Source: Alphaproteobacteria bacterium (lineage in GTDB: Bacteria; Pseudomonadota; Alphaproteobacteria; Bin95). Taken from it: 64,000 nucleotides of DNA. The stretch covers positions 1,344,001 to 1,408,000 of the forward strand of contig OZ219786.1 in the NCBI GenBank assembly GCA_964291285.2. Direction: 5' to 3'. The position numbers and the translations under genes are program-made. Below the pieces are notes generated by a model, which had not been told where the DNA came from, did no database searches, and worked only from the letters and a program-made list of their open reading frames with translations. Of this stretch, positions 47,121 through 64,000 are shown piece after piece (position 1 is the stretch's first letter; every line of letters begins with the position of its first letter).

Positions 47121-48551
47121 GAACTGCTGGCAGGGGCCGGCGCCCTGTGCGCCGCACAACTGTTGTGCGGCCGCCTCGGAATATTCGACGGTCCGAACAT
47201 GGAGACGCCGGATGGATACCTGAATGCGGTCGACGTTGAGGAGCTTCCGTGTGGCGGGGCGGCGAACGACGCGCTCAGGGTCCGTCTTTTCCATTCCGAA
47301 GGCGAAAGCCGTTTTACCCACGTCCATCGTGTGATCGCGGAGTATCTCGGCGCCAAATGGCTCGCCCGGTCCTTCGAAGCCGGCGTCTCCGAACAGAGAA
47401 TATTCGCGTTGTTCCGCCAAGCCGAAAGGGTGCCGACCTCACTGCGCGGACTGCATGCATGGATGGCTCATTTCAGCGATGTGCTGGCCCGGCGCTGCAT
47501 CGAAGCCGATCCTTATGCCGTCCTACGGTACGGCGACGCCGAGACCCTGAGCCTCGACCAGGCGCGATCCCTGCTTTCCGCCCTGAAGAATCTGTCCGAA
47601 AATGACCCGTTTTTCCGGGCCGAGGACTGGGGCCGCCATCCCGTATCCGGTCTGCTACGTATCGAACTCGAGGACGACATTCGCGCCGTCATCGAGACGT
47701 CCCACAGCCACATACAGCTGGCGAGCCTGTTACTCGAAGCGATGGCTGGAAAGGATCTGGCGCATGCGCTTGCACCGACGCTGGAAGCTATCGTTTACGA
47801 CCGCAACCGATTTTACGATGCACGACATTCCGCCCTGCTGGCCTGGCGCGATGCCGATCCGCATCCTGGCCCCGAAGCAATCATTCGTCGCCTTCTGGAA
47901 CTCAAGGATCCCGGTTCTGCGCGGCTGGCCTTCGATCTTCTGCTTCTCATCGGCGTTCCAAATCTCTCCGTCGCCGCCGCCGCCGATACTGTGCTGGCGC
48001 ATCTGGGCTTCGCGGCAACGCCGGAAGAAGCATGGGAGTGCGTCGAGTCCCGATATGTTCCCGACTGCCTGTTCAGAGACATCGACGCGGTGACGCTTGG
48101 ACCATTGCTCGATCGCCTGGCCGACGGCGCACGAACATTGACACACGGTAACGACCGGGACCCGAAATCCGACCTTGCAGACCTTGTCAGGCGTCTGGTT
48201 GTCCAGTTCCTGTCATCCGGCGTTGCGGTCGAACCGGCCCGATTATGGTCTTGGATCGGTTGGCTCGATGGGCGCCACGGCTACAGCGACACGAAAAAGG
48301 GGCAGCTGGCTGCGATCCTTCGCGACAACCGTACGCTACGCGCTGCATTGGTCGAACACGTGCTGCTTTCTCCCGGCGTCGATGGTGTCTTGATGGCTGG
48401 CCTTCGTCTCGCCCGAATCAAAGCCGGTCTGTATCCGACAGTCGACGATCTGGCGGGCATATTGCGGGGTTTGCCTGATCGAGCGGCTGCCGGCCCGATC
48501 GACCCGAAAATCTATCACGACCTGCTCTTGCTGGGGAGTACCGAGGAAGGC

Positions 48552-50490
48552 GAGAAATTTGCGCTGTGGGGTTTTTCCGGTCGGATGGGACGTTGGGTCC
48601 GGGTGTTGATGTTGTTTGTTCCGGCGTTCGAGGCGGTCGCCGCGGTTGCTTTTCGAACTTGAGCGGCCCAGCCCGGCAGCATCGCCGGCCTTCGGTCGCG
48701 TTTGTCCGTATGCCGGGGTCCGGCGGGTTGGGTCAGCGTTGTCGGCAGTCGGCTGAGGGGTCAGCCGGTATCGAGGTATGGCGCCGGGCCGACCAGGGAG
48801 CGCATGCGTGCGACGCGTCCGGCGCGGGCCTGTGCAAGCGCCATGGCCATCATGACCGCCAGGGCCAGCCCGATGCGGGTCTTCATCTTCGCGCGTCCGC
48901 GGATGTAATGGGTCTCGAAGTTGAAGCTGCGGTCGAGGCGGGCGTTGATCCGCTCCATGGCGGTGCGCCGGTTGTATCCGCGCCGCCATGACGGGCTGCC
49001 CCAGGGCGTGGGCGTGAAGATACGCCGGTCATGGCTGTCGAGGTCGACGCGCAGGATGCGGCCGTATTCGCCGGACTTCACCCCACCCGCCCGATGGCAG
49101 GCCCGGCGTCCCTTGCACTCGAAGCCGAAGGCGGCTGCGGGGCAGCGGTATTTGAGCGTGCCGCAGACGCCGCGCCCGACCTCGAACCCCTGGAAGGCCA
49201 TGGCGCGGACCTCGCCGGTCTGCGGGCACACGCAGGACACCCGGCCGCGTTCGTCATGAACGATGACGTCGGCGCGCCCGGGGAACAGCGGTCGCGTGAT
49301 CGGCCGGGCCGGGTCATGGCCCGGCTCCTTCTTCTCGACCCGCCACATCAGGCGCGTGTCGATCAGCGGGCGGATATGCCACCTGTCCCACAGCCGCGCC
49401 TTCAGGCGGGCGTTGTCGAGACCGCGGTCGGCGCTGAAATCGGCGCAGCGCCCGGCCATCTCCGGCGCCTCGGCGAACAACTCCTCCAGCATCCCGGACA
49501 GCACCCCGGGTTCCGATGCCGACGCCCGCGTCACCTCGAAGGCCACAGGAACCTCGTGGTCCGTGTCGGCGATCAGGTGCAGCCCGTAGCCGAACCACGA
49601 CTTCACCTTCTTCCACACCGCGCCGGTCTTCGCGTTCACCCCGCCCGTCTCGTGCCTGCCCCAGTCCGCATCGGGGTCCGAGGTCTGCCCCCTGGCCCCG
49701 GCAACCCGGCCCGTCGAGTGGCTCGCCACCGCCTTGCCGTCGTAGCCGAGATGGCGACCGAAGTCCGGCAACTCCTCGAACAGCGAGGCGCGCAGACGCC
49801 CGATCATCCCCGACACAAGGCCGCGCTCGTCCTCAAGGCGCACCACGCGCCCCAGGAACCGCGAGAAGTTCCAGGCGCCCGGCACCGTCGAGCGCAACGG
49901 CGCCGGACGCCTCACCGCGCGCCCTGCGCAAAGCGCCACCACCGGCGCACCCTGCAAGGGCAGCGCCTCGAACCCGCAAATCTCAAGCAATGCCGGGTTG
50001 CGGCCCAGCTCACGCAGCAGCGACTGCATCGAGGCATGCTGGAACACGATCCCCGCGATCAGAGCCCGCCACATCGCCCGCACCGGGTAGTCGTTGCGAC
50101 CCCGGCCTCGACCCGCCTCAAGCGCCGCCACAACCTTCTCGTCGGGAAGCGTGTCGAGCACCACACGCAGACGCTCAAGGTCCGCAAGGCCCTCCACAGA
50201 CCACCACGAAAAGGCTAACTTCTCCGCTGTCGCCATCACGTTCTCCCAACCAGCGCCGGTGGATGGAACAAGGGCCGCAGGCCCGATGGCGACACCTTCT
50301 ACTCAGTCCCGCGCCTCAACGCGACGCGCCCGAAAACCAGCCCGCGCACGGCCATGGGGTGGAAATCCACAAAACCTTTCCCTCCAAACCGCAAAAACCC
50401 CGGAAATCAGCCATCCTGACGGGGTAAGAAAAATCCAGACCCTCCGCAATGCCTTGCTCAGAAAGCACTTCCAAACAGCGCACACGCCTC
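48552..50490 (-). mobile_element. Insertion sequence, copy 1 (1939 bp, IS1182/IS5-like DDE)
   Basis: Imperfect IRs GAGAAATTTGCGCTGT / ACAGCGCACACGCCTC; flanked by AAGGC (48547-48551, 50491-50495). Confidence 0.92.
48761..50239 (-). CDS. DDE transposase (IS1182/IS5-like)
   Basis: GRNDYPVRAMW, GYDGK, SDPDADWG, WFGYGLH, ADRGLD, YNRRTAMERINARL. Confidence 0.9.
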   Translation of the reverse strand: MMATAEKLAFSWWSVEGLADLERLRVVLDTLPDEKVVAALEAGRGRGRNDYPVRAMWRALIAGIVFQHASMQSLLRELGRNPALLEICGFEALPLQGAPVVALCAGRAVRRPAPLRSTVPGAWNFSRFLGRVVRLEDERGLVSGMIGRLRASLFEELPDFGRHLGYDGKAVASHSTGRVAGARGQTSDPDADWGRHETGGVNAKTGAVWKKVKSWFGYGLHLIADTDHEVPVAFEVTRASASEPGVLSGMLEELFAEAPEMAGRCADFSADRGLDNARLKARLWDRWHIRPLIDTRLMWRVEKKEPGHDPARPITRPLFPGRADVIVHDERGRVSCVCPQTGEVRAMAFQGFEVGRGVCGTLKYRCPAAAFGFECKGRRACHRAGGVKSGEYGRILRVDLDSHDRRIFTPTPWGSPSWRRGYNRRTAMERINARLDRSFNFETHYIRGRAKMKTRIGLALAVMMAMALAQARAGRVARMRSLVGPAPYLDTG

Positions 50491-50495
50491 AAGGC

Positions 50496-51568
50496 GAGAA
50501 ATTTGCGCTGTGGGGTTTTTCCGGTCGGATGGGACGTTGGGTCCGGGTGGTGATGTTGTTTGTTCCGGCGTTCGAGGCGGTCGCCGCGGTTGATTTTCGA
50601 ACTTGAGCGGCCCAGCCCGGCAGCATCGCCGGCCTTCGGTCGCGGGTGTCCGTATGCCGGGGTCCGGCGGGTTGGGTCAGCGTTGTCGGCAGTCGGCTGA
50701 GGGGTCAGCCGGTATCGAGGTATGGCGCCGGGCCGACCAGGGAGCGCATGCGTGCGACGCGTCCGGCGCGGGCCTGTGCAAGCGCCATGGCCATCATGAC
50801 CGCCAGGGCCAGCCCGATGCGGGTCTTCATCTTCGCGCGTCCGCGGATGTAATGGGTCTCGAAGTTGAAGCTGCGGTCGAGGCGGGCGTTGATCCGCTCC
50901 ATGGCGGTGCGCCGGTTGTATCCGCGCCGCCATGACGGGCTGCCCCAGGGCGTGGGCGTGAAGATACGCCGGTCATGGCTGTCGAGGTCGACGCGCAGGA
51001 TGCGGCCGTATTCGCCGGACTTCACCCCACCCGCCCGATGGCAGGCCCGGCGTCCCTTGCACTCGAAGCCGAAGGCGGCTGCGGGGCAGCGGTATTTGAG
51101 CGTGCCGCAGACGCCGCGCCCGACCTCGAACCCCTGGAAGGCCATGGCGCGGACCTCGCCGGTCTGCGGGCACACGCAGGACACCCGGCCGCGTTCGTCA
51201 TGAACGATGACGTCGGCGCGCCCGGGGAACAGCGGTCGCGTGATCGGCCGGGCCGGGTCATGGCCCGGCTCCTTCTTCTCCGCCCGCCACATCAGGCGCG
51301 TGTCGATCAGCGGGCGGATATGCCACCTGTCCCACAACCGCGCCTTCAGGCGGGCGTTGTCGAGACCGCGGTCGGCGCTGAAATCGGCGCAGCGCCCGGC
51401 CATCTCCGGCGCCTCGGCGAACAACTCCTCCAGCATCCCGGACAGCACCCCGGGTTCCGATGCCGACGCCCGCGTCACCTCGAAGGCCACAGGAACCTCG
51501 TGGTCCGTGTCGGCGATCAGGTGCAGCCCGTAGCCGAACCACGACTTCACCTTCTTCCACACCGCGCC
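50496..51568 (-). mobile_element. IS copy 2, left segment (transposase 3' half 50705-51562)
   Basis: Near-identical to 48552-49624; interrupted at ACACCGCGCC. Confidence 0.93.
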
Positions 51569-51687
51569 CGCACCGGTGGGTGCTAACTACCTGACATAGC
51601 GTCGTTTTTTCTCCCGAAATGTAGCGGTCGGGGAAGCGGGTCGCAAGGGCCCGTTCCCCGGCTGCAACCGGAGCCGGGAGAAACGCA

Positions 51688-52812
51688 ATGGCGAAGACTA
51701 CCCTCACCGAGGTCCGCGTGAAGGCGCTCAAGCCCCGCAGGTCCGTCCGCGAGGTCCGCGACGGCAGGCTCAGGGGGTTCGGCGTCCGTGTGTCGCCCTC
51801 GGGCCGCAAGCAGTTCTTCATCCACTGCCAGCATCGCGGCGTGCGCATCTGGAAGATCGTCGGCGACGCCGGGTCCATGAGCATCGGCGAGGCGCGGGCC
51901 GTGGCTGCGGACATGCTTGCCGCCATCAGGCGCGGCGGGGAGGCGCCGCCTGCGCCGGACGAGACGCTCTTCGAGGCCATCGCCGGGACGGTCTTCCGGC
52001 GGTATGAGCGCCTCTGGAAGGCCGGAACGCTCGCTGTCAACTGCAGCTATCTTCGCTGCCAGATCCTGCCGCATTTCGCGGGACGGCAGGTCGCGGACAT
52101 CGACCGGCAGGAGGTGCGCAACTGGTTCGCCCGTCTGCACGCGACGCCGGTGGCGGCGGACCGGTCCATGCCGGTGCTGTCCGTCATCATGAGGGAAGCG
52201 GAGGCCATGGGCCTGCGCCCGGAGGGTTCCAACCCCTGCCGGGGGATAAAGCGTTACCGCCGCAAGGGCCGCGAGCGGTTCCTCCCGGACGAGGAAATCC
52301 GCCGCCTGTCCGGGAGGCTCAAGGCGCATGAGGCCCGCTGGCCGCAGCATGTCGCCGTCATCCGCCTGCTGCTGCTGACCGGCTGCCGCAAGGGCGAGAT
52401 CCTCACCCTGCAATGGTCCGACTACCGGGAAGGCCGCCTGTTTCTCCGCGACTCCAAGACGGGCCCCCGGACGGTCTGGCTCTCCGAACCGGCCCGGGCG
52501 GTGCTTGATCGTCTCGAGCGGAAGGGGCGGTGGATATTCCCCGCATCTCGGGGCGACCGGCCCCGGAGCGGAAGCTGGCTGGACCACTTCTGGCGCAGGG
52601 TCCGCGCCGAGGCGGACCTGGAGGACGCCCGCCTTCACGATTTGCGTCATACGCATGCGAGCCTTGCCCTCCGGCAGGGCGTGACGGTGCTCGCCATCGG
52701 CCGGCTGCTGGGCCACCGCAGGCCGGAAACCACGCTGAAATATACCCATGTCGCCGACGCCATGGTGCAGGACGCAGCCGAGACGGTCGGCGCCGTGCTG
52801 GAGGCAGACTGA
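51688..52812 (+). CDS. Tyrosine recombinase A with arm-binding domain
   Basis: DGRLRGFGVRVSPSGRKQF; LTGCRKGE, DSKTG, HDLRH, LLGH, TLKY. Confidence 0.95.
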   Translation: MAKTTLTEVRVKALKPRRSVREVRDGRLRGFGVRVSPSGRKQFFIHCQHRGVRIWKIVGDAGSMSIGEARAVAADMLAAIRRGGEAPPAPDETLFEAIAGTVFRRYERLWKAGTLAVNCSYLRCQILPHFAGRQVADIDRQEVRNWFARLHATPVAADRSMPVLSVIMREAEAMGLRPEGSNPCRGIKRYRRKGRERFLPDEEIRRLSGRLKAHEARWPQHVAVIRLLLLTGCRKGEILTLQWSDYREGRLFLRDSKTGPRTVWLSEPARAVLDRLERKGRWIFPASRGDRPRSGSWLDHFWRRVRAEADLEDARLHDLRHTHASLALRQGVTVLAIGRLLGHRRPETTLKYTHVADAMVQDAAETVGAVLEAD

Positions 52813-53957
52813 TGGCGGGCCGGGAACGGATGAAATTCACCGACGCCGCCGTCGCCCGTCTCCGCCCCCGCGAGCGGGAATATACGGTCTGGGACACGCG
52901 CATCGCCGGCCTCGGCGTCCGGGTGCGGCCCACCGGCGGGCGCAGCTGGGTGCTGCTGCTCGACAGCGGCGGGCGCACCAGGCGCGTCTCGCTCGGCCCG
53001 GTTGGCGTGAAGAGCGCCGCCGAAGCCCGCCGGGAGGCTCTCGAGCGCCAGGCGGCCCCGCAGCCGGAGGAGACAGCCGCGCCGCCCGGCGCGGCCCCGC
53101 TGTTCCGGGATTTCGTCGCGGGTTCGTGGAAGCAGGCACACTTCGACCGCTACAAGCCGTCGGGCCAGCAAACCGCGTCCGGAATACTCCGGCGACAATT
53201 GCTTCCCGCATTCGGTCCGAAGCCGCTCGACCGCATTACGCCGGGCCATGTCCGGCAGTGGTTCGACCGCTACAGCCGGACCGCACCCGGCGGCGCCAAC
53301 CGCGCTTTCACCCTCCTTCACCAGATCATGAACTTCGCCCTCGCCTGCGGTCATGTCGAGGTCAATCCGGCCAGGCACATGAGAAGGAACCGCCGCCCGG
53401 CACTCACACGGTTCCTGTCCCGGGAGGAACTTGCCCGCCTTCATGCCGCCCTGAACGCGCAGACCCGGCAGGGTGCGCGGCGGCAGGCCGACATTATCCG
53501 CCTCCTGCTGCTGACCGGCTGCCGCAGAAGCGAGATCACGGGCCTCGGCTGGTCGGAAGTCCGCGAGGACGGGCTGGCGCTCACCGATGCCAAGACCGGA
53601 CCGAGAACGGTTCCACTCAACAGACAGGCCCGCGCTATCCTCTACCGGCAGACGCGCACGGGCAGCGCGTTCGTGTTTCCCTCGCCGCGCGACCCCGCCC
53701 GCCCGCGCAGCCCGGACCTGCCCCTCTGGTACCGCGTCAGACGCGAAGCCGGGATCGGGGATGTCCGCCTCCACGACCTGCGCCATACCATGGCCAGCCA
53801 TGCCGTCATGAACGGCGTGCCCGTCCCGGTGGTCTCCCGCCTGCTCGGACATTCCGATGTGCGCATGACGCTGCGCTACGCCCATATCGCCGACCGCGAC
53901 ATCGAGGCCGCCGCGGAACGCGTCGGGCAGGCCATGAACGCCGTGCTGGAGACCTGA
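52812..53957 (+). CDS. Tyrosine recombinase B with arm-binding domain
   Basis: TGATG overlap with recombinase A; WDTRIAGLGVRVRPTGG; LTGCRRSE, DAKTG, HDLRH, LLGH, TLRY. Confidence 0.95.
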   Translation: MAGRERMKFTDAAVARLRPREREYTVWDTRIAGLGVRVRPTGGRSWVLLLDSGGRTRRVSLGPVGVKSAAEARREALERQAAPQPEETAAPPGAAPLFRDFVAGSWKQAHFDRYKPSGQQTASGILRRQLLPAFGPKPLDRITPGHVRQWFDRYSRTAPGGANRAFTLLHQIMNFALACGHVEVNPARHMRRNRRPALTRFLSREELARLHAALNAQTRQGARRQADIIRLLLLTGCRRSEITGLGWSEVREDGLALTDAKTGPRTVPLNRQARAILYRQTRTGSAFVFPSPRDPARPRSPDLPLWYRVRREAGIGDVRLHDLRHTMASHAVMNGVPVPVVSRLLGHSDVRMTLRYAHIADRDIEAAAERVGQAMNAVLET

Positions 53958-53971
53958 CGCGCCACTACCGG

Positions 53972-54082
53972 GCGTTCTCCTGCCATCGCAGCGCGCCGTG
54001 CAACACGGGGCTGTCTCGGGAGCCGGACCCGGCCGGTGCACGCCCTCGAGGCCGAGGGAGAGCCCCGCGCCCAGATGGTGCG
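53972..54082 (-). repeat. Degenerate direct repeat of the autotransporter 3' end (54958-55070)
   Basis: Encodes HLGAGLSLGLEGVHRPGPAPE/DSPVLHGALRW versus RMGAGLSLGLEGAHRPGPAPEDSLMLRGALRW*; 1-nt deletion and TAG changed to CAG. Confidence 0.9.
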
Positions 54083-54124
54083 AATGGCGCGCAACGGCGC
54101 TCTCGATGTAGCAGTCCAGCAGAC

Positions 54125-54934
54125 TCAATTCCTGTTGAAGCCGAATTCCCCGCGCGATTGCAGAACCCGCTTCCAGTGCGTTTCGCGTTCGACAATCATG
54201 GCGTCGGCAATACGGGCGGTATGGCTTTCCAGAAGCAAAAACCGGAAATGCTTCCGGCAATGGTCCAGACCGCGATTCCCGAGCAATTCCTTCAGGTCGG
54301 CATTGTTGCCATGTCCGGTCGCGCTGTATTCGCGCCAACGAGACCAGACGCCGCCGTCGCCGTAGGCCGCCCCGACATACAGCCGCCCCGTTCCCGTATC
54401 GGTGATCAGATAAACGCCCTTTGCGTTCTCCAGGGCGCCGCGCCAATCGGGCCGGTCGTTGCGGATGAGCGATCCGAGCTCGCCGAAACCGATGTCGATC
54501 CGGTCATGGCCCGGAAAATCGATCCCGGAATACTCCTCCTTGAGAATTTCGCTTACCGTGAATTCGTCCAGGCGTTTCTCGAAATCCACGCGGGTTGCCC
54601 GTTGGCGCCAGGGAGAATGCAGTTTGAGGCGTCCGATGAAGCTGCGGCCCTGTTCGGTCAGGGATACGGCGTATCTGTCCGGCAGCCGCTCCACGACTTC
54701 CCACACACCGCCGAACAACCAGATGTCAGGCTCCCGATGGAAATCGATCACCGAGAAGATATACCGGCGGTTGAAATCGTTGTTTTTCGGTCGATGCTCC
54801 TGCCAGCCTTGCCATTCTTCCCGGCTGCGAACGAAAACGTCGAGCGGTTGATTGCGCTTGTTGTAGCGGGCGAAGTGCAGCTTGTAGAGAGCCGGCTCCC
54901 GTATCGGCCAAATGTCGGTGAGATGAATCACCAT
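54125..54934 (-). CDS. GIY-YIG nuclease family protein
   Basis: KGVYLITD...LYVGAAYG...SRW, ERETHWK, terminal N; lower GC than neighbours. Confidence 0.88.
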   Translation of the reverse strand: MVIHLTDIWPIREPALYKLHFARYNKRNQPLDVFVRSREEWQGWQEHRPKNNDFNRRYIFSVIDFHREPDIWLFGGVWEVVERLPDRYAVSLTEQGRSFIGRLKLHSPWRQRATRVDFEKRLDEFTVSEILKEEYSGIDFPGHDRIDIGFGELGSLIRNDRPDWRGALENAKGVYLITDTGTGRLYVGAAYGDGGVWSRWREYSATGHGNNADLKELLGNRGLDHCRKHFRFLLLESHTARIADAMIVERETHWKRVLQSRGEFGFNRN

Positions 54935-54965
54935 ACGCCCTCAGCCGAGCCGGGCCTGCGTTCTT

Positions 54966-57900
54966 CTACCATCGCAGCGCGCCGCGCAGCATGAGGCTGT
55001 CTTCGGGAGCCGGGCCCGGACGGTGCGCGCCCTCGAGGCCGAGGGAGAGCCCCGCGCCCATGCGGTAGCGCGCGCCGAGCCGCAGGGTGCGCCCGCCCGT
55101 CTCCGCCAGGCTGAGGCCCGCCCAGGGGGTGAGCACCGCCAGCGGCCCCGGACCGGGCAGGCCGAACCCGTGGCCCACCTCCGCCTCCAGGCGGCTCTCC
55201 GCCCCTTCCGGCGCCGTGCTGTCCGCCGCCGCGGGCAGGCCGTGGTCGAACAGCCGGTCCAGGCCGCTCTCAGTGCGCCCGTGCGCGGGACCGAAGGCGA
55301 GGAACGTCCCGCGCCCGTCCGCTCCGGGATCGAGGCGCACCAGCGCGCTCACGCCCCATTCGTCGCGGTCCGCCTCATGCGCCGCCAGGAGCCGCGCGCG
55401 CAACTCCGCCGTCAGGCCCGCCGCCGGGTCATGCCATGTCACGCCCGCCCCGGCCTCGAGGCCCGCCCCTTCGCCAACGTCGCCGCCGTCATGGCGCACC
55501 CCCGCCTCCAGAGCCGGCGTCAGCGTCGCGCCGCCCGCCAGCGCGTGCTCGTACGATCCCTCCAGCAGCAGCCGCAGCCGCGTCGTCCTCGCCGTCAGCC
55601 CCGCCAGGCCGTCATCGGACCCCGTGCGCAGGCGCGCCGCCGAACCCTCGCCCTTCACCGCAAGGCGCGTCATCCCGCCCGCGATGAGCTCCGCATCCTC
55701 GACCAGGACGCTGCGCCCGCCCGCCGCCGCGCTCCACTGCGTCAGGTCCGCACTGCGCGAAGGCGCGCCCTCCTCGGCAATCCGCACCTCGCCGGTCCCG
55801 TAGCCGAGGCTCGCCCACAGGGTCGAGCCGTCCGGCAGCAGCCACGCCGCATAGGGGTGCACCGACGTGATCGTGGTCTCGTGCACGCCCTTCACCCGGC
55901 CGGCGGCGCCGGTCGTCCGCGTGTCCAGCTCGCCCCGCGCATGGGAGAGCGCCGCCCCCGCCAGAAGGTCCGGGCGCACCCGCACATCCGCCCCCAGCTG
56001 CGCCGACCACAGGCCGCCGTCCCAGGTGACATCCTTCTCCGAACCCGACAGCGACAGCCACTCGCCCCGGCCCCATACCGCCAACGGCGGCGCCTCGTCC
56101 TCTCCGGCGCCCGCCGCCAGCGTGAAGGACGCCCCGTCCAGTATCTCGCTCAGCGTCGGACCGGGTTCCTCCGGGCGCGGCGGCACGGCCCGGGCGGACC
56201 GGGCATACCCGACCGGCGACGACGGCAGGGCGCCGAACCGCAGCGAACTGCCCGGCCTGCCGGACGCCGCCGCCTCGATGCGGTCCGTCACCGCCCCCAG
56301 CGTCCGCGACATCGCCGCCGCCGCCACATGCGGCAGCACCGCCGCATTCACCCGGTTCGCCCGTGACACGGACCCCGCCGCCCGGTCGCGCAGCACGCCC
56401 GCAGCCGTCGCGTCGCTCCCCACCGCGTAGCCCGCACCATCGTTCAGCGTGATGCGGTAGGCTTCCGCCCCTTCCGTATCCGCATCGGCCGCCGTCGGGA
56501 TCGTCACCACCCCCGTGGTGCGCCCCGCGGCGCCGAACACCGCGTCGAACGAACGCGGCCCCAGCCCGCCCGGAACGTCCCCGGCATCGAAGCCGCTCGC
56601 GTTGCGCGCCGACAGCGTCAGGCTGACCGTCAGGCTGCCCGTCAGCGCCCGGTCGGCGGTCACCGCGAGGCGGATGTCGTCGCCCTCGGTCACCGCCGCA
56701 GGATCCTGCGCCAGCGTCAGCACCGGCAACAGCGTCGTGTCCGTCACCGTCACCGCCACCGGATCGATCGACACCGGACCGTAGCCGCCGCCCGAGGCGC
56801 CGTGCGTCAGCGTCGCCGTGTCGTCGGTCGTGTCCTCGTCACGGGCCGCGCGCACCGTCACCGTCTGCGCCGTGTCCCAGTCGGTCGTGGTGAAGGTCAG
56901 GCTGGCCGGTTCCACCGTCACGTCGCCCGAGGCGCCGCCCACCGTCACCGTGACATCGCCCGAGGGTTCGGTGTCCAGCACCACCGTGTAGGCGGCGCTG
57001 CTGCCCTCCGCGACCGTCAGCGCGGTCGGCGTCACCGTCACGCTTCCGTCTGAAGCAGGGGTCGTACTGCCGCCGCCTCCGGAAGCCGCCGCCACCGTCA
57101 CCCGCGCCGGCGCATCCGGGCCGGCGCCGGGGCCGGCCGCGTTCACCGCGCGTACCTCGAACTGGTACGTGCCGCCGGCCAGCCCGCTCACCTCGTGGCG
57201 GGTGGTGCCCGCACCGGAGCCGGGAATGTCCTCCCACTCGCCCCAAGCGGCGCTGCCGGTCTTCCGCCGCACCTGCCACTTCGTGACCGTGGGGTTCGCC
57301 AGGTCGGTCCAGGTCAGCGTCACCGAACCGGCGCCCGCCGCGCCGGCAAGACCGGTCGGCTTCGCCGGCGCCACGCCGCTGTCCACCACGCTCACCACCA
57401 CATCGGCGATGCTCACCGAGCCGTAACCGCCGCCAGACGCGCCGTGCGTCAGCGTCGCCGTGTCGTCGGTCGTGTCCGTGTCCGTGCCCGCGTTCACCGT
57501 CACCGTCTGCGGGACGGTCCAGTTCGAAGTCGTGAAGGTCAGCGGCGAGCCTGTCACCGTCACGTCGCCCGACGCGCCGCCCACCGTCACCGTCACATCG
57601 GCCGACGGCACCGTGTCCAGCCGCACCGTGTAGCTGCCGGAGCCGCCCTCAGCCACCCGCAGCGCCGCCGTCGATACCGTCACGCCGGGCACCGTCGGCG
57701 CCAGCGGCGTCGCCGTCGCCCAGCCCGTCCCGGCACCATCGCCCGCAGGGTTCACCGCGCGCAGCCGGAAGCTGTATTCGCTGCCGTTCTCCAGGCCCGT
57801 CACCGTGTGGGTCGTCGTGGTGGCGCCCGCACCCGGAATCGCCGTCCAGGCCGCGCTTGCCCTGACGCCCGTCTTGCCGTGGCCCAGCTCGTAGCCGGTG

Positions 57901-60900
57901 ATGCTCGCATTGTCCGGGTCGGTCCAGGTCAGCACCACCTGCCCGTTACCCGCCGCCGCGGCCAGTCCCGTCGGCGCCGCCGGCAGCGAAACCGACTCGG
58001 TCACGCTCACCACCACGTTGCCGATCGAAACCGGGCCGTAGCCCCCGCCCGACGCGCTGTGCGTCAGCGTCACGTCGGGGTCCGTGTCCGCGTCCGGGTC
58101 CAGGGCGGCGTTCACCGTCACCGTCTGCGCCGTGCTCCAGTTGTTCACCGCAAACCGCAACTGCGAATCCGGCACCGTCACGTCGCCCGACGCGCCGCCC
58201 ACCGTCACCACCACCTCTCCCGAAGGCTGCGTGTCCAGCTTCACCGTGTAGGTCCCGGTCCCCCCTTCATCCACCGTCAGCGTGCCGGACGACACCGTAA
58301 CCCCCTTCGTGTCGTCCTCCGTCACCGTCACCACCACACTGTCGACCGAAACCGAGCCGTAGCCCCCGCCCGACGCGCTGTGGGTCAGCGTCACATCGGG
58401 GTCCGTGTCCCCGTCCGGGTCCTGCGCCGCGCTCACCGTCACCGTCTGCGCCGTGCCGTAGCTGGTTGTCGTGAAGGTCAGGCTCGGCGGGCTCACCGTC
58501 ACGTCGCCCGACGCGCCGCCCACCGTCACCGTCACGTCCGACGAAGGCGCCGTGCTCAGCTTCACCGTGTAGGTCCCGTTCGCTCCTTCCGCCACCGTCA
58601 GCGCCGACTTCGAAACCACCACCCCCACCGGCGTCGCCGTCACCTCGTCCGACCACACCGACTGAACGGCCGCCCCGCCGCTGCCGCGCCGGGCGAACAG
58701 CCGGAACGTGTAGGCCGTCCCGTTCGTCAGCCCCGTCACCGTCGCGCTCGTCGCACTGCCCGAGACCGTCCGGGTCGCGCCCCAGCTGCCGGCCCCGCTC
58801 TTGTACTGATAACCCCAGGTCGAGACATTCGCCTGCGCGCCCCAGCTCAGGGTGACCGAGCCGTCGCCCGCCGCCGCCGTGAGGACCGGCTTCGCCGGCT
58901 TCGCTGTCGTCGCCGAGGGCGTCGCCGTCTTCCAGTCGGTGGCGGCGCCGTCGCCGGCGGCGTTCACCGCGCGCAGCTTGAAGCTGTATTCGGCATCGTT
59001 GTCCAGACCCGTCACCGTGTGGGTCACGGTGGTAGCGCCCGAATCCGGTATGGCGACCCACGCCGCGCTTGCCCTGACGCCCGTCTTGGCGTGGCGCAGC
59101 TTGTAGCCGGTGATGCTCGCATTGTTCGGGTCGGTCCACGACAGTACCGCCTGACCGTTGCCCGCCGACGCCGTCAATCCCGCCGGCTTCGGCGGAACCT
59201 GACCCCCGCCCGAACCCACCGTCACCGACACCGTCCCCGCATCCGGGATGAACGTCTTCGAGGCCCCCGTCAGCGTGAACGCATGGTTGATCACCGCCGT
59301 CCCCGCCGCCACCCCGGTCACCGTCACCGCCTGCGCCACGTTGTAGTCGCTCGTCGTGAACGTCAGGCTCGACGGACTTACCCTCGCCTTGTCCGCCGCC
59401 GAACTCGACAGCGCAAGAGTGCCCGCAAATGCCCGGTTCAGCTTCACCGTGTATGTCGCCGTCGCTCCCGGCGAAACCGTCACCGGCGCATCCGCGAACG
59501 TCAGCGCCGGCCTGTCCGGCCTGTTGGTCGTCAACTCGATCACATTGGAATCCGGGCCGTTCAGGCTGAAGAGGCCGCCGCCGACAAACCGAGACCCGAT
59601 CGGCTGGACGTAATATTCATATACCTCGCCGTGCAACGACCCCGAACCTGACCATTGCCGGGTACCGGCGCCGCCCGTGTGGCTCGGCCCGCGCCATGAT
59701 GTACTCCCCCTGTTCCGGTAATACGCGTACCAAAAGCCGATGACATCGGCGTTGATGACGATCCTGTGCGGGCCGCCGGAGGTCGTCGTCCAGGTGAGAT
59801 TATGCGCGCCGTTGGCGCCCGCCGCGCCCGTCAGCACCGCCGCAACCGCAGCCCCCGGCGTGGCCGTCTGTTCCGCCGACGCCGTACCGTTGCCGGCATC
59901 GCTCACCGCCCGAAGCTTGAACGCATAGGCCGTGTCGTTGGTCAGACCCGTCACTTCGGCGTATGCCTTCGCCGCTGTGGAACCCGGAATCGCCGTCCAC
60001 GAGCCGTAACTTCCGGCCCCCGCCTTCCGCTGATACTCCCAGCCGGTGATGCTGGCGTCGTCCGGGTCGGTCCAGGTCAGCCATACCTTCGTGTTGCCCG
60101 GAGACACCGCGAACCCCGCCGGCGCAGCCGGCACGGGAGACGCCTCGGTGGTCGCGCTCCGCTCCCCGGAGGCCGCGCCGGCGCCGGCCGCATTCCTCGC
60201 CCGGATCCGGAACGTGTAGGCCGTGCCGGCCTTCAGGCCCGTCACCACATGGCCGATGGTTGTCGCCGTCGAACCCGGAACCGCCCTCCACGCGCCGTAA
60301 CTCCCGGTGCCCTCCTTGTACTGGTATTCCCAACCGGTGATGCTGGCGTCGTTCGGATTGGCCCACGCAAGCGTGACCCGATCCGAGGCCGGCAGGGCGG
60401 CAGTCAGGGTCGGCTGGCCCGGAACCTGCACGACGGTATAGGTGGTCTCCGTCTGCGCTTCCGTCGCCGCCGTGCCGTCATGGCCCTTCCAGTGCCAGCG
60501 GACAGTATGGACGCCGACGCCCAGCGAGGCGCAGGGATACAGGTTCTGGCCGCGTCCCGTCCGCACGCCGGCGATATTGCTCGAGACCCGGACACCGTGG
60601 GTGCCGTGCGACAGCGCCGAATGCGCGGCCTTGGGCGTCCTGCCGGGGCGCGACTCCAGATAGGTCGAGGTGGCCGTCGTGACCGCAAGAAGGTTGAAAC
60701 ACGCCTGCACCGTCCCGCCGGACGGCACGGCCAGGGTCCGGCTCGGCGTGGAGACCAGCGTCGGGGTCTCCGCCCGCGGCGTGGCTTCGGCCCAGCCCCT
60801 GTTGGCGATGACGTTGGTATGCTGATTGCCGGTGTTCGATTCGTGGGCCACAAGCTGGTAGGAGTACTTCTTGCCGTTGGTCGTCGACAGGCTGAAACTG

Positions 60901-61637
60901 GCCGTGTGCTGGTTGGCGTCGTGCTTTATCGAACCGACCACTCCCGGGGTACCGCTGCCCAATGTGTACCAACCATAGGTAATACCGTCCACGACCCACC
61001 GGATGGACCAGCGCACGACAGGATTGCCCAAGCCGCTGACCGAGGCGCTGATATCCACCCAGCCGTCGTTCGCAGTCGCCGTGACGCTGACCGTGCCGGG
61101 GGTGACCGCCGTGGGCGTCGCGGTGACTGCGTTGGAAATGAAGACGATATCCGGTGTGCCCGGGATCGGGTTGTCGTAGTGGATAGCGACCTGGAAGGTG
61201 TATTCGCTGCCGTTGTCCAGACCCGTCACGGTGTGCGTTCGAATGGTCCCCGCGCCAGAAATCCTCTGCCAATTACCGTAGCTTCCCGTACCCTTCTTCT
61301 GCCGATACCGCCAAGGATTCGGATCCAAGTCAGAGTCCAAAGTCAAGGCCCAGTTCAGCGTCACCTGCCCGTTGCCCGGCGTGGCGGTCAGGGTGGTGCC
61401 TGATTGCGCTTGCGCGTCCTGGGGCGCGAGGGCGGCGGCCAGCGTGATGAGGAAGAGGGCAGCGAGTCCCGCCTTCAGGCGGCGGGCGGTTCTCCCGGGG
61501 GCGCCCACCGGCTCAGCCCCGCGCCCTGACTCTTGAGGGGGGGGGGGTACAACGAGTTCGGGTTCGCGCGCGCGTGAGGCGCCCCGCCCGAAGAGCCGCA
61601 GGTCATGCATCCCGATATCGCCCGGCATCCGCGTCAT
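54966..61637 (-). CDS. Giant autotransporter-type adhesin with fibronectin type III and Calx-beta/cadherin-like repeats (~2220 aa)
   Basis: GGAGG/GAGG RBS before ATG 61637; extended signal region ending AQA; repeated LTWT...GWEY...VTGL.NG..Y.F..RA.N FN3 units; LTVAEG..YTVKL repeats; beta-barrel ending in W. Confidence 0.88.
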   Translation of the reverse strand: MTRMPGDIGMHDLRLFGRGASRAREPELVVPPPPQESGRGAEPVGAPGRTARRLKAGLAALFLITLAAALAPQDAQAQSGTTLTATPGNGQVTLNWALTLDSDLDPNPWRYRQKKGTGSYGNWQRISGAGTIRTHTVTGLDNGSEYTFQVAIHYDNPIPGTPDIVFISNAVTATPTAVTPGTVSVTATANDGWVDISASVSGLGNPVVRWSIRWVVDGITYGWYTLGSGTPGVVGSIKHDANQHTASFSLSTTNGKKYSYQLVAHESNTGNQHTNVIANRGWAEATPRAETPTLVSTPSRTLAVPSGGTVQACFNLLAVTTATSTYLESRPGRTPKAAHSALSHGTHGVRVSSNIAGVRTGRGQNLYPCASLGVGVHTVRWHWKGHDGTAATEAQTETTYTVVQVPGQPTLTAALPASDRVTLAWANPNDASITGWEYQYKEGTGSYGAWRAVPGSTATTIGHVVTGLKAGTAYTFRIRARNAAGAGAASGERSATTEASPVPAAPAGFAVSPGNTKVWLTWTDPDDASITGWEYQRKAGAGSYGSWTAIPGSTAAKAYAEVTGLTNDTAYAFKLRAVSDAGNGTASAEQTATPGAAVAAVLTGAAGANGAHNLTWTTTSGGPHRIVINADVIGFWYAYYRNRGSTSWRGPSHTGGAGTRQWSGSGSLHGEVYEYYVQPIGSRFVGGGLFSLNGPDSNVIELTTNRPDRPALTFADAPVTVSPGATATYTVKLNRAFAGTLALSSSAADKARVSPSSLTFTTSDYNVAQAVTVTGVAAGTAVINHAFTLTGASKTFIPDAGTVSVTVGSGGGQVPPKPAGLTASAGNGQAVLSWTDPNNASITGYKLRHAKTGVRASAAWVAIPDSGATTVTHTVTGLDNDAEYSFKLRAVNAAGDGAATDWKTATPSATTAKPAKPVLTAAAGDGSVTLSWGAQANVSTWGYQYKSGAGSWGATRTVSGSATSATVTGLTNGTAYTFRLFARRGSGGAAVQSVWSDEVTATPVGVVVSKSALTVAEGANGTYTVKLSTAPSSDVTVTVGGASGDVTVSPPSLTFTTTSYGTAQTVTVSAAQDPDGDTDPDVTLTHSASGGGYGSVSVDSVVVTVTEDDTKGVTVSSGTLTVDEGGTGTYTVKLDTQPSGEVVVTVGGASGDVTVPDSQLRFAVNNWSTAQTVTVNAALDPDADTDPDVTLTHSASGGGYGPVSIGNVVVSVTESVSLPAAPTGLAAAAGNGQVVLTWTDPDNASITGYELGHGKTGVRASAAWTAIPGAGATTTTHTVTGLENGSEYSFRLRAVNPAGDGAGTGWATATPLAPTVPGVTVSTAALRVAEGGSGSYTVRLDTVPSADVTVTVGGASGDVTVTGSPLTFTTSNWTVPQTVTVNAGTDTDTTDDTATLTHGASGGGYGSVSIADVVVSVVDSGVAPAKPTGLAGAAGAGSVTLTWTDLANPTVTKWQVRRKTGSAAWGEWEDIPGSGAGTTRHEVSGLAGGTYQFEVRAVNAAGPGAGPDAPARVTVAAASGGGGSTTPASDGSVTVTPTALTVAEGSSAAYTVVLDTEPSGDVTVTVGGASGDVTVEPASLTFTTTDWDTAQTVTVRAARDEDTTDDTATLTHGASGGGYGPVSIDPVAVTVTDTTLLPVLTLAQDPAAVTEGDDIRLAVTADRALTGSLTVSLTLSARNASGFDAGDVPGGLGPRSFDAVFGAAGRTTGVVTIPTAADADTEGAEAYRITLNDGAGYAVGSDATAAGVLRDRAAGSVSRANRVNAAVLPHVAAAAMSRTLGAVTDRIEAAASGRPGSSLRFGALPSSPVGYARSARAVPPRPEEPGPTLSEILDGASFTLAAGAGEDEAPPLAVWGRGEWLSLSGSEKDVTWDGGLWSAQLGADVRVRPDLLAGAALSHARGELDTRTTGAAGRVKGVHETTITSVHPYAAWLLPDGSTLWASLGYGTGEVRIAEEGAPSRSADLTQWSAAAGGRSVLVEDAELIAGGMTRLAVKGEGSAARLRTGSDDGLAGLTARTTRLRLLLEGSYEHALAGGATLTPALEAGVRHDGGDVGEGAGLEAGAGVTWHDPAAGLTAELRARLLAAHEADRDEWGVSALVRLDPGADGRGTFLAFGPAHGRTESGLDRLFDHGLPAAADSTAPEGAESRLEAEVGHGFGLPGPGPLAVLTPWAGLSLAETGGRTLRLGARYRMGAGLSLGLEGAHRPGPAPEDSLMLRGALRW

Positions 61638-61849
61638 GACCTCATCCTCCCGTCCCTGATTCCAAGCCCGCGCCGCGCCCGCACGGCCGCAGCGAACCCG
61701 CCGGTGCAACCCATAACCCGTCCGCAGGCCGGTTTCAACACGCGCCGCGCCCGACAGCCCGGCAGCCGGACATCCTGCCATCGGCAAGCGCTTCCGGAAC
61801 CGACCGGCGTGCAGCGCAGGGTGGGCGAACCAGCCTTGCCATGACCGCC

Positions 61850-62233
61850 TCAGGGCTGCGGCGCGGGGCCGCCCTCCGGATCGGCGCTGACCGAGACCGC
61901 CTGCCAGCGCGCCGCCGCGCCGGGATCGGTCAGACGGTCCAGGTCGCCCTCACGGGAGAGCCAAGCATCGACAGCATCGCCGAGAGCGGTCCAGCGGTCC
62001 CCAAGGTCGAGGTCCTCCATGCGCTCCTGCTCGATCTTTGCCAGCACCAGCAGTTCGCGCACCGCGCGCCGCATGACGACGGCCGGCACCGCCTCCGCCA
62101 TGATGGCCCGGTGAACGATGTAGCGCGATATTTCCATGCCCGCCTCGTCGGCAAGCTCCCTGATGCGCGCCCACTCGTTCGCGGTCGCCATCACCGCATG
62201 CTGCGTGCGGCGGCCCCCCGGAGCCCGGCTCAT
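61850..62233 (-). CDS. Ribbon-helix-helix (MobC-like) protein
   Basis: QHAVMATANEWARIRELADEAGMEISRYIVHRA pattern, similar in layout to 44486-44827. Confidence 0.6.
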   Translation of the reverse strand: MSRAPGGRRTQHAVMATANEWARIRELADEAGMEISRYIVHRAIMAEAVPAVVMRRAVRELLVLAKIEQERMEDLDLGDRWTALGDAVDAWLSREGDLDRLTDPGAAARWQAVSVSADPEGGPAPQP

Positions 62234-62625
62234 GACAACGCCGCCGGACCTGCCGCAGCCATCAGAATTCCGTGCTTTACCAGCAAAGGTGCTTGCATTT
62301 CTCCCATATCAATTATCATATTCATCCTCTCACAGGTTGATTTGGTGCATCACCACGATGGTCGTGACTTTTTTCGTGCCAGAAACGCATTCATGCATCA
62401 GGCTACCCTCAATGCCCCCCGGAAACAATGCGTTGTCACTGTTTTACTTCCCCCAGTGCCACTATCGCGTTCATGACCTTCCTGTAAGTCAGTCGGATTT
62501 CGTGCCAATGCCTCTTGCCATGCCCGGAAATATACTGTATTCAAGCCCCCTTCATGGGAGGAATGCGACCCTCTGTCAGATAGTGCCCTAACTCGAAAAA
62601 TTACGTTCGGATTTTACACCGCGCC

Positions 62626-63491
62626 GGTCTTCGCGTTCACCCCGCCCGTCTCGTGCCTGCCCCAGTCCGCATCGGGGTCCGAGGTCTGCCCCCTGGCCCC
62701 GGCAACCCGGCCCGTCGAGTGGCTCGCCACCGCCTTGCCGTCGTAGCCGAGATGGCGACCGAAGTCCGGCAACTCCTCGAACAGCGAGGCGCGCAGACGC
62801 CCGATCATCCCCGACACAAGGCCGCGCTCGTCCTCAAGGCGCACCACGCGCCCCAGGAACCGCGAGAAGTTCCAGGCGCCCGGCACCGTCGAGCGCAACG
62901 GCGCCGGACGCCTCACCGCGCGCCCTGCGCAAAGCGCCACCACCGGCGCACCCTGCAAGGGCAGCGCCTCGAACCCGCAAATCTCAAGCAATGCCGGGTT
63001 GCGGCCCAGCTCACGCAGCAGCGACTGCATCGAGGCATGCTGGAACACGATCCCCGCGATCAGAGCCCGCCACATCGCCCGCACCGGGTAGTCGTTGCGA
63101 CCCCGGCCTCGACCCGCCTCAAGCGCCGCCACAACCTTCTCGTCGGGAAGCGTGTCGAGCACCACACGCAGACGCTCAAGGTCCGCAAGGCCCTCCACAG
63201 ACCACCACGAAAAGGCTAACTTCTCCGCTGTCGCCATCACGTTCTCCCAACCAGCGCCGGTGGATGGAACAAGGGCCGCAGGCCCGATGGCGACACCTTC
63301 TACTCAGTCCCGCGCCTCAACGCGACGCGCCCGAAAACCAGCCCGCGCACGGCCATGGGGTGGAAATCCACAAAACCTTTCCCTCCAAACCGCAAAAACC
63401 CCGGAAATCAGCCATCCTGACGGGGTAAGAAAAATCCAGACCCTCCGCAATGCCTTGCTCAGAAAGAACTTCCAAACAGCGCACACGCCTC
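62626..63491 (-). mobile_element. IS copy 2, right segment (transposase 5' half, start 63240)
   Basis: Near-identical to 49625-50490; followed by AAGGC (63492-63496). Confidence 0.93.
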
Positions 63492-63496
63492 AAGGC

Positions 63497-64000
63497 GTCC
63501 CGCCCGACTTGCGCAAAGCGGCCCTCGAAGTTGCCGGTTGCGATTCGGAGTTGTTGGCCATTGTTGATCAGCTATCGGACCCGCCCCAACCGGAATGGAA
63601 GATCGAGGAGGAAAGGAACCGGGTAGAGTGCGAAGCCGAACGGCAACGGATGTTCCAGTCTCACCGCGACGCCCTTGCGAAGTGGGCCGGGGAAATCTCG
63701 GCGGGGGCTATCGGCGTCCTGGTGGAGCCGGCCAACGTCTATCTCGGTCGAAGACGCATCCATGTTCGGCAGCACGCTTCGGATGGCGAGCCGTCTACCC
63801 AGGATATGATGCGTGAATATCTGGGCGGAGATCTGGCGGAACGGGTCATGGCCGGCTTCATCGCTGCCCTCGGTCGCGGCGACCTTCCGACAGCCTCGTC
63901 GATCGCGGAAGTCCACTGCGAGAGCAAGCATTGGCCAGCCGAAGCCGTGATGATCTGCGGTGTCCAGGAATTGCTTCGCCGCGGACAACCGATCCGCGCC
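63497..64000 (+). pseudogene. Continuation of the NACHT/STAND-like NTPase gene
   Basis: Stop-free frame VPPDLRKAALEVAG...LLRRGQPIRA joins in frame to ...GSTEEG at 48551 through the AAGGC duplication. Confidence 0.85.

Follow-up and report, generated by a model that had tools for sequence, protein, structure and literature searches.

The 11,057-bp insert that splits one of two tandem copies of an insertion sequence (IS) in an alphaproteobacterial genome probably belongs to a family of integrative mobilizable elements (IMEs) that is present in many copies, and it has no relaxase of its own. The window analyzed here is a stretch of 64,000 nt from Alphaproteobacteria bacterium GCA_964291285.2 (contig OZ219786.1, positions 1,344,001-1,408,000 of the forward strand); positions below refer to this window, except where one of the five contigs (C1 to C5) of the 6.13-Mb host genome is named. 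Members of the family have a fixed layout, with two integrase genes (IntA and IntB) at the left end, a NikA-like ribbon-helix-helix (RHH) gene at the right end and cargo between them. The family has conserved ends, short target sites of which empty copies are found, intact paired integrases and, in its large members, a relaxase.

The insert interrupts copy 2 of a 1,939-bp IS, with the 10-mer ACACCGCGCC on both sides. This 10-mer occurs three times in the window, at 49615 (the sole site within the intact IS copy 1), 51559 and 62616, a number of matches reached in 0/100 shuffled controls. The IS bounds, mapped from other genomic copies, place copy 1 at 48552-50490 on the reverse strand (1,939 bp), with its single docking 10-mer at 49615-49624 and an IS1182/IS5-like DDE transposase at 48761-50239. 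Repeat finding identified copies 1 and 2 as a tandem pair with a period of 1,944 bp and an interruption in copy 2. The portion of copy 2 left of the insert (50496-51568, reverse strand) terminates in the attL core ACACCGCGCC (51559-51568, forward strand), which is the same as the native IS sequence; the attR core ACACCGCGCC (62616-62625, forward strand) precedes the right portion (62626-63491, reverse strand). Without 51569-62625, copy 2 aligns with copy 1 ungapped, and 8 of the 1,944 bases compared are mismatched. An earlier note made from the sequence had described an 11-kb segment within IS copy 2, bounded by a 10-bp direct repeat, whose excision restores the IS length, and both statements hold: the repeat is ACACCGCGCC at 51559 and 62616, and the restored copy is collinear with copy 1 and measures 1,939 bp between the mapped ends. 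The 5-bp sequence AAGGC adjoins copy 1 on its left, separates the two copies and recurs on the right of copy 2 (48547-63496); the pair forms a head-to-tail dimer resembling the tandem dimers that are known to arise in IS transposition, as intermediates or as products.

Searched against their own genome, as the earlier note had suggested, the integrases and both ends proved to recur as a multi-copy family with conserved ends. Copies at 76-97% identity are numerous for the leftmost 2.4 kb and the rightmost 0.8 kb of the insert and mostly lacking for the middle; the genome contains 28 Int1-like genes, and short end motifs detected 23 left ends and 14 right ends. At all left junctions, the flank is followed by ACACC, 5 or 6 variable bases and CGCACC-N4-GGTGC-TAACTATCTGACA (short motif CGCACC N4 GGTGCTAAC). 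All right junctions read TGTCAGATAGTGCCCTAAC (including GTCAGATAGTGCCCTAAC), N23, ACACC, 5 or 6 bases and flank. In the focal copy, the left-end conserved block (51569-51601, forward strand) consists of the hairpin C-GCACC-GGTG-GGTGC (51570-51583) followed by TAACTACCT-G-ACATAGCG and includes the left inverted repeat CTACCTGACA (51587-51596). The conserved right-end noncoding region occupies 62234-62615, where GTCAGATAGTGCCCTAAC (62575-62592) inverts the left end and is separated from the core by 23 nt. Inverted copies of TATCTGACA are present at both element ends, and a search for arm sites among 8-mers common to both ends yielded nothing convincing.

Eight elements of 8.2-38.8 kb could be paired by the orientation and distance of their ends. 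Their flanking cores are perfect in four cases, differ at one position in three and differ at three positions in one. Among them is a 21.6-kb element (C3:123434-145052) that has two integrases and a 10-11-bp repeat and sits in another IS. Two small elements of 8 kb, E6 and E8, are 99.8% identical over 7.2 kb and are located on different replicons, at different sites. The RHH gene of E6 (L090:7365-7874) and E8 looks frameshifted: the MSRPPGG start and the later FRYIAHRL match the focal protein, and the intervening stretch does not. Four other copies of the integrase module begin inside Int1, at about residue 131-152 (C2:224882-226730, C2:768808-770669, C3:398110-399960, and C5:324832-326692), and since the same foreign upstream sequence is found at all four, the truncated module itself became repeated. 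Divergent subfamilies with the same layout and about 60% Int1 identity were also observed (C2:637109, C2:1185341, and other loci); these keep the hairpin, and the block following it differs (GGTGCTAAGGCATTGATACAGCG and similar).

The left end of the insert encodes, on the forward strand, IntA (Int1; 51688-52812, 374 aa), an arm-domain tyrosine integrase with residues R234, K257, H317, R320, H343, and Y352, and its paralogue IntB (Int2; 52812-53957, 381 aa), with R238, K261, H321, R324, H347, and Y356. The two proteins are 40% identical, each has Arm-DNA-bind_3, Phage_int_M/SAM, and Phage_integrase domains, and their genes overlap by TGATG at 52810-52814, with no gene between them. Arm domains and the full R-K-HxxR-H-Y set were found in both, in agreement with the previous description of them as paired, paralogous and TGATG-coupled. 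The nearest solved structure to Int1 and Int2 is integrase chain 5c6k, and HP1 integrase (1aih) matches too. The conserved gene of the right end (61850-62233, reverse strand) encodes a 127-aa protein assigned to PF21983 at 27.8 bits against a cut-off of 27 and NikA-like in 20 of 30 Atlas matches; an RHH gene had been expected there, and its label can be refined to NikA-like. When this protein was compared with solved structures, nothing meaningful matched.

A domain scan of the open reading frames (ORFs) of the insert and a comparison with the relaxases of the genome revealed no transposase and no relaxase inside the insert. The absence of a relaxase, also noted earlier, is thus correct for the focal copy but not for the family, whose full-length members carry TrwC. 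Element E1 (36 kb) has a gene for a TrwC relaxase-helicase of 1,726 aa, along with DUF3991 and a pair of adjacent NikA-like genes. Its TrwC recurs at 97.9% identity next to another right end on C4, and E7 (10 kb) retains the last 62 codons. TrwC orthologues of 86-91% identity are located within family elements of two other genomes, a few kilobases from the RHH end, and the family TrwC matches plasmid MobF relaxases at 28-35% identity. The presence of a MobF relaxase in full-length members suggests that the family belongs among IMEs, with the focal copy as a reduced member. Cargo was surveyed by Pfam on 62 crude ORFs from seven elements, which include FN3 autotransporters, RTX-repeat proteins, porins with a lipoprotein, a type I restriction system, HepT, NUDIX/NrtR, ADP-ribosylglycohydrolases, ARPP-1, and nested IS elements. 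The idea of a self-contained compact transposon specialized for adhesins was therefore dropped, because full-length relatives carry the MobF relaxase and the cargo is highly varied. About 18 TrwC-like loci are found in the genome as a whole; one homologue, 43% identical to the family relaxase, is located at C2:1409646-1412420, about 1.6 kb past the right end of the window and about 3 kb to the right of the focal element.

Relatives of Int1 number in the thousands, and the best 120 clusters are 77-91% identical. Sampling one genome per species gave 52 external loci, frequently several to a genome; the hosts are uncultured Alphaproteobacteria, several of which carry the label Defluviicoccus and two the label Chloroflexota. 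An Int2 orthologue follows Int1 by 3-28 nt in 47 of these 52 loci, so the co-occurrence of the pair elsewhere, which the earlier note had named as a check, is borne out. The left-end block is present upstream of Int1 in 43/52 loci and is nearly always preceded by ACACC. Orthologues of the RHH protein (70-96%) were detected in 5/5 genomes tested, where the downstream ends stop at ACACC-N5. Two complete external elements were delimited, one of about 72 kb with ACACCGTATT on both sides and one of about 34 kb flanked by ACACCGGAT[A/G]. At E <= 1e-120 (60 relatives), Int1 was detected in 13/16 further genomes from the same genus, in 0/20 genomes of two sister genera and in 0/24 genomes of other families.

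Neither frame contains a stop in any of the 56 adjacent pairs, in which both proteins retain R, K, HxxR, H, and Y without exception. Pairwise distances of Int1 and Int2 covary (Mantel r = 0.89; 0/999 permutations as high). On plasmids, the best matches reach about 40% identity and are themselves overlapping pairs of the IntA/IntB type, on the Shewanella oneidensis MR-1 megaplasmid (NC_004349.1 32496-34993) and on a Vibrio europaeus plasmid (NZ_CP064859.1). Int1 scores 275-277 bits to the first gene of these pairs and 158-169 bits to the second, and Int2 scores 251-253 bits to the second gene and 157-179 bits to the first. Since separate A and B orthologues are found on the Shewanella and Vibrio plasmids, the duplication is older than the spread across classes. 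This conservation of the A and B lineages is, at the level of sequence, the best available argument that both integrases would be needed, and the separate orthologues in Gammaproteobacteria make the heteromeric action proposed in the earlier note more plausible. The second protein of the plasmid pairs is longer, at 435-457 aa.

Most junctions lie inside multi-copy IS elements, and many of the corresponding empty sites could be identified. The focal IS is present in 24 empty copies with one core and in four copies with a left junction exactly at that core, and three right junctions are also found there. The IS hosting E1 has 24 empty copies; among the copies of a third IS, 8 are empty and 3 occupied. 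In a fourth, ACACCACGGC is native to some copies, and one such copy is occupied. Sites in unique DNA are uninterrupted in related genomes, in 7/7 loci examined for E5, 7/7 for E6, and 5/7 for E2. About 14 distinct native sites, read by eye, give the target consensus ACACC-NNN-G-[A/C]. Landing in the IS can be attributed to this short docking sequence, which is native to the focal IS (24 empty and 4 occupied copies).

The cores at the two borders behave differently when the native target is known: 0/11 left cores and 5/11 right cores deviate from it (Fisher p = 0.035, for junctions that are not independent events). In E5, the site in relatives and the left core are both AGACCGCCGAG and the right core is ACACCCCTGAG, the first ten bases of which (ACACCCCTGA) are the native core of the 26-copy IS that hosts E1. 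Core differences fall at positions 2, 3, 5, 6, and 8, with position 10 added in one foreign element, a placement from which the carried segment is judged to span roughly core positions 2-8. In strand-biased circularizing integrative elements (SE), the border next to the integrases is described as carrying the core of the target and the far border that of the donor, and the same report credits Tn554 with a 6-bp footprint (PMC10214605). By our own reasoning, the two core arrangements should be equally frequent if an ordinary two-strand exchange were followed by replication; we infer that integration of the family is strand biased.

The cargo of the focal copy is dominated by an FN3-repeat autotransporter gene (54966-61787, reverse strand). 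Its ORF is 2,273 aa long when read from TTG and about 2,223 aa from the first ATG, with six fn3 stretches and an Autotransporter beta-domain in the last 380 aa (E 7e-11), in line with the FN3 autotransporter of about 2220 aa originally proposed. The passenger (56700-60400) is composed of diverged repeats of about 321 and 620-640 bp (FN3 and a second module), between which contigs from public sequencing runs collapse or jump. To its left is a 269-aa gene (54125-54934, reverse strand) with a weakly GIY-YIG-like C-terminal half. A GIY-YIG nuclease had been named here; the similarity is detectable, but both signals are below their cut-offs (Pfam E 0.013 and NCBIfam E 0.0023). The 269-aa gene lies between the two copies of a 102-bp direct repeat (87-95% identity). 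One copy is a remnant resembling the autotransporter gene 3' end (53972-54073, no strand assigned), and the other (54958-55060) is that 3' end, as though the 269-aa gene had inserted in a homing-style manner. Copies of the 269-aa gene at 94-97% identity are present at three further genomic places.

In the mechanism that we propose, each element would consist of a fixed left end (a short hairpin block followed by translationally coupled IntA and IntB), a fixed right end (the NikA-like RHH gene and about 380 bp of conserved noncoding DNA), and any cargo between them. IntA and IntB, most likely acting jointly in one synapse, would recombine the joined ends of a circle, the excised or copied-out form of the element, with ACACC-NNN-G-[A/C] sites. 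The exchanged segment would lie within core positions 2-8 or so, and a matching NNN would be preferred and not required. When the cores differ, the integrase-proximal junction would retain the target core and the distal junction would receive the core of the previous site. Full-length members would contribute the TrwC/MobF relaxase-helicase encoded near the RHH end, and the circle would place the left-end hairpin block about 400 bp upstream of the RHH gene, where it could serve as oriT. Because the focal copy has no relaxase, it would be mobilized only in trans.

In R388, oriT is located just upstream of trwA. The R388 nic site has been described as a hairpin with 5-bp arms and a free 4-nt loop, followed by nine bases, the cut and a purine (PMC4176350), and its sequence is given as GCGCACCGAAAGGTGCGTATTGTCT/ATAGCCC (PMC4814116, Table 1). 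The family left end reads CGCACC-N4-GGTGC-TAACTATCT-G-ACATAGCG. It matches R388 in geometry, with a 4-nt free loop and a 9-nt spacer ending in TCT and followed by a purine, and its 5-bp arms have the same sequence as those of R388; both systems combine a TrwC-family relaxase-helicase with a small RHH accessory protein. Unlike in R388, the loop varies within the family, 5/9 spacer bases match, the 3' ATAGC is 3 nt more distant, and the putative transfer module is split between the two ends of the integrated element. The left-end block is therefore a candidate MobF oriT/nic region, an assignment to which we give about an even chance. TrwC loci outside the family lack the left-end block, an observation that is neutral in this respect.

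Several observations weigh against parts of this account. The hairpin block is confined to family ends, 19 of the 31 genomic GCACC-N4-GGTGC sites (about 28 are expected by composition), and this restriction could equally reflect an integrase site; variants of the hairpin arm, such as GGTTC, occur without compensatory change. The 10-mer ACACCGCGCC is present 87 times in the genome, and 57 copies outside the focal IS are empty, with none occupied, compared with 4/28 occupied within the IS (p = 0.01), so the 10-mer alone does not explain site choice; selection against genic insertions or additional context may explain the empty sites. In the comparison of cores, the junction counts represent non-independent events, and of the five right cores that deviate, two (C1:61499 and C1:802220) were judged against variable paralogous targets. 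The RHH gene of E6 and E8 is apparently degenerate yet recently copied, which suggests that it is unneeded in cis, and the many orphan ends (23 left versus 14 right) imply that much of the family is rearranged or decayed. Public reads covering 48400-63700 (three runs from one study, kept as short contigs and uninformative on this point) contained, among the 15 of 42 joints listed, none at 51568/62616 and none connecting the right end to the left end; neither a circle nor an excision product is thus among the joints listed in these runs.

It is conceivable that only one integrase works and that its partner is redundant as a paralogue, serves as regulator or directionality factor, or carries out a second reaction such as multimer resolution. 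Many islands are driven by one P4-like integrase, and the domain layouts of IntA and IntB are identical. We nevertheless consider this rather unlikely, given that both proteins keep all catalytic residues in 56/56 pairs, that their genes are translationally coupled, and that the A and B lineages are each conserved from the genus to the Shewanella and Vibrio plasmids; redundancy is hard to square with two genes that are intact, coupled, and separately conserved. The focal copy could also be an immobile fossil that has lost its transfer genes and become fixed in a dead IS, as its missing relaxase, the many orphan family ends in the genome, the internal rearrangement of cargo seen in the 102-bp repeat around the 269-aa gene, and the lack of an excision product among the joints listed from the short-contig public runs would suggest. 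Both integrase frames are intact, however, the conserved blocks are present at both ends, and the cores are perfect, and other small relaxase-less members (E6 and E8) were copied very recently, which makes a fossil quite improbable.

We regard as very improbable a model in which the MobF relaxase, and not the integrases, inserts and excises the element through oriT-specific recombination at nic-like end sequences. TrwC of R388 does perform site-specific recombination and integration at nic sites (PMC4176350), and TATCTGACA is inverted at both ends. The boundaries nevertheless lie at ACACC cores upstream of the hairpin and away from the nic-like position, the targets have neither a hairpin nor a nic-like sequence, and small members without any relaxase have moved. 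Target duplication by a DDE-type transposase was rejected because there is no conserved transposase and the mismatched cores are of donor origin. An XerCD-type module was rejected as well, on the basis of low scores (59-77 bits against XerC/XerD equivalog cut-offs of 330-335) and of the arm domain present in the family integrases.

Taken as a generic class, IMEs with a P4-like integrase accommodate the family, which adds to them a fixed integrase pair, a tiny degenerate site, and polarity. Like IMEs and genomic islands with a P4-like (Arm-DNA-bind_3/DUF4102) integrase, the family has a catalytically intact integrase at the border, short border direct repeats, empty sites, variable cargo, a relaxase and RHH accessory protein in full-length members, and a predicted reliance on the mating apparatus of another element. 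It differs from them in its two paralogous integrases, which form a fixed coupled pair; in its very short and degenerate target, which is not a tRNA or a long block of identity; and in its tolerance of mismatched cores with polarity, with many copies per genome, often inside IS elements.

Among elements with several recombinases, SE resembles the family in that its left end encodes two tyrosine recombinases, both catalytic, its terminal inverted repeats are imperfect, its preferred sites are few, and the target spacer lies at attL and the donor spacer at attR (PMC10214605), to be set beside deviations in 0/11 left and 5/11 right cores of the family, which are few and non-independent. The SE core, however, is intA-tfp-intB-srap with one large recombinase, and in the same source SE is reported from Gammaproteobacteria only and described as putatively non-mobilizable. 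The family integrases are 374 and 381 aa in length and have arm domains, there is no intervening gene and no tfp or srap, cargo follows the pair, and large members carry a relaxase. Tn554 shares with the family its two tyrosine recombinases, an additional small protein (about 125 aa), a preference for certain sites, and a travelling core (PMC10214605, PMC3414803); the family is set apart by gene size and order, since Tn554 has a large TnpB, a tnpC contiguous with tnpA and tnpB, and Firmicutes hosts, and in these accounts Tn554 is said to make no target duplication and is presented without arm-type domains. The Gamma-Mobile-Trio (GMT; bioRxiv 10.1101/2023.03.28.534373) and GInt (PMC5385486) islands likewise have a multi-recombinase module at one end, defense or offense cargo, and a small DNA-binding partner, and they are reported to have a circular form. 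GMT differs in its tandem GmtY, large GmtZ, and StbA-like GmtX and in its insertion between inverted repeats (Int2 scores 24.7 bits against GmtZ, NF047926, with a cut-off of 600), and GInt differs in its three recombinase-like genes plus ginD.

RIT and BIM are also suspected mobile elements of Proteobacteria with clustered tyrosine recombinase genes (PMC3414803), RIT having three recombinases in a row and the family two. BIM was rejected as a two-recombinase module because, according to the same source, it comprises one recombinase and an unrelated conserved protein. None of BIM, RIT, GInt, GMT, SE, Tn554, and XerCD agrees with the family in every defining feature tested, and the initial impression that the layout belongs to no recognized named family was upheld. 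Full-text literature searches aimed at paired recombinases, the coverage of which excludes supplements and most subscription papers, found no description of an IntA-IntB layout with a distal RHH gene. A more far-reaching version of the proposed mechanism is possible, and we offer it tentatively, as less likely to be right than wrong. IntA and IntB would form an obligate heteromer that carries out a strand-biased, heterology-tolerant copy-out/paste-in reaction like that of SE and Tn554; the carried core of about 7 bp would steer the element to look-alike sites, hence the IS; and the circle junction would rebuild a MobF oriT beside the RHH gene, so that transfer would be licensed only after excision. 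On this view, the A/B pairs on the Shewanella and Vibrio plasmids would make the family a wide unnamed class beside SE, GInt, GMT, and Tn554.

The family would represent a fifth layout among multi-recombinase integrative elements (Tn554, RIT, GInt/GMT, and SE), the first made from two arm-type P4-like integrases and the first linked to a conjugative relaxase. The natural pairs of occupied and empty sites, together with the mismatched cores, make the polarity of strand exchange directly testable, and the very short, programmable-looking core may be of interest for integrase engineering. Given the adhesin, porin, RTX, and defense cargo, up to dozens of copies per genome, and the occurrence in 13/16 genomes, the family is likely a main route of surface and immunity variation in the genus.

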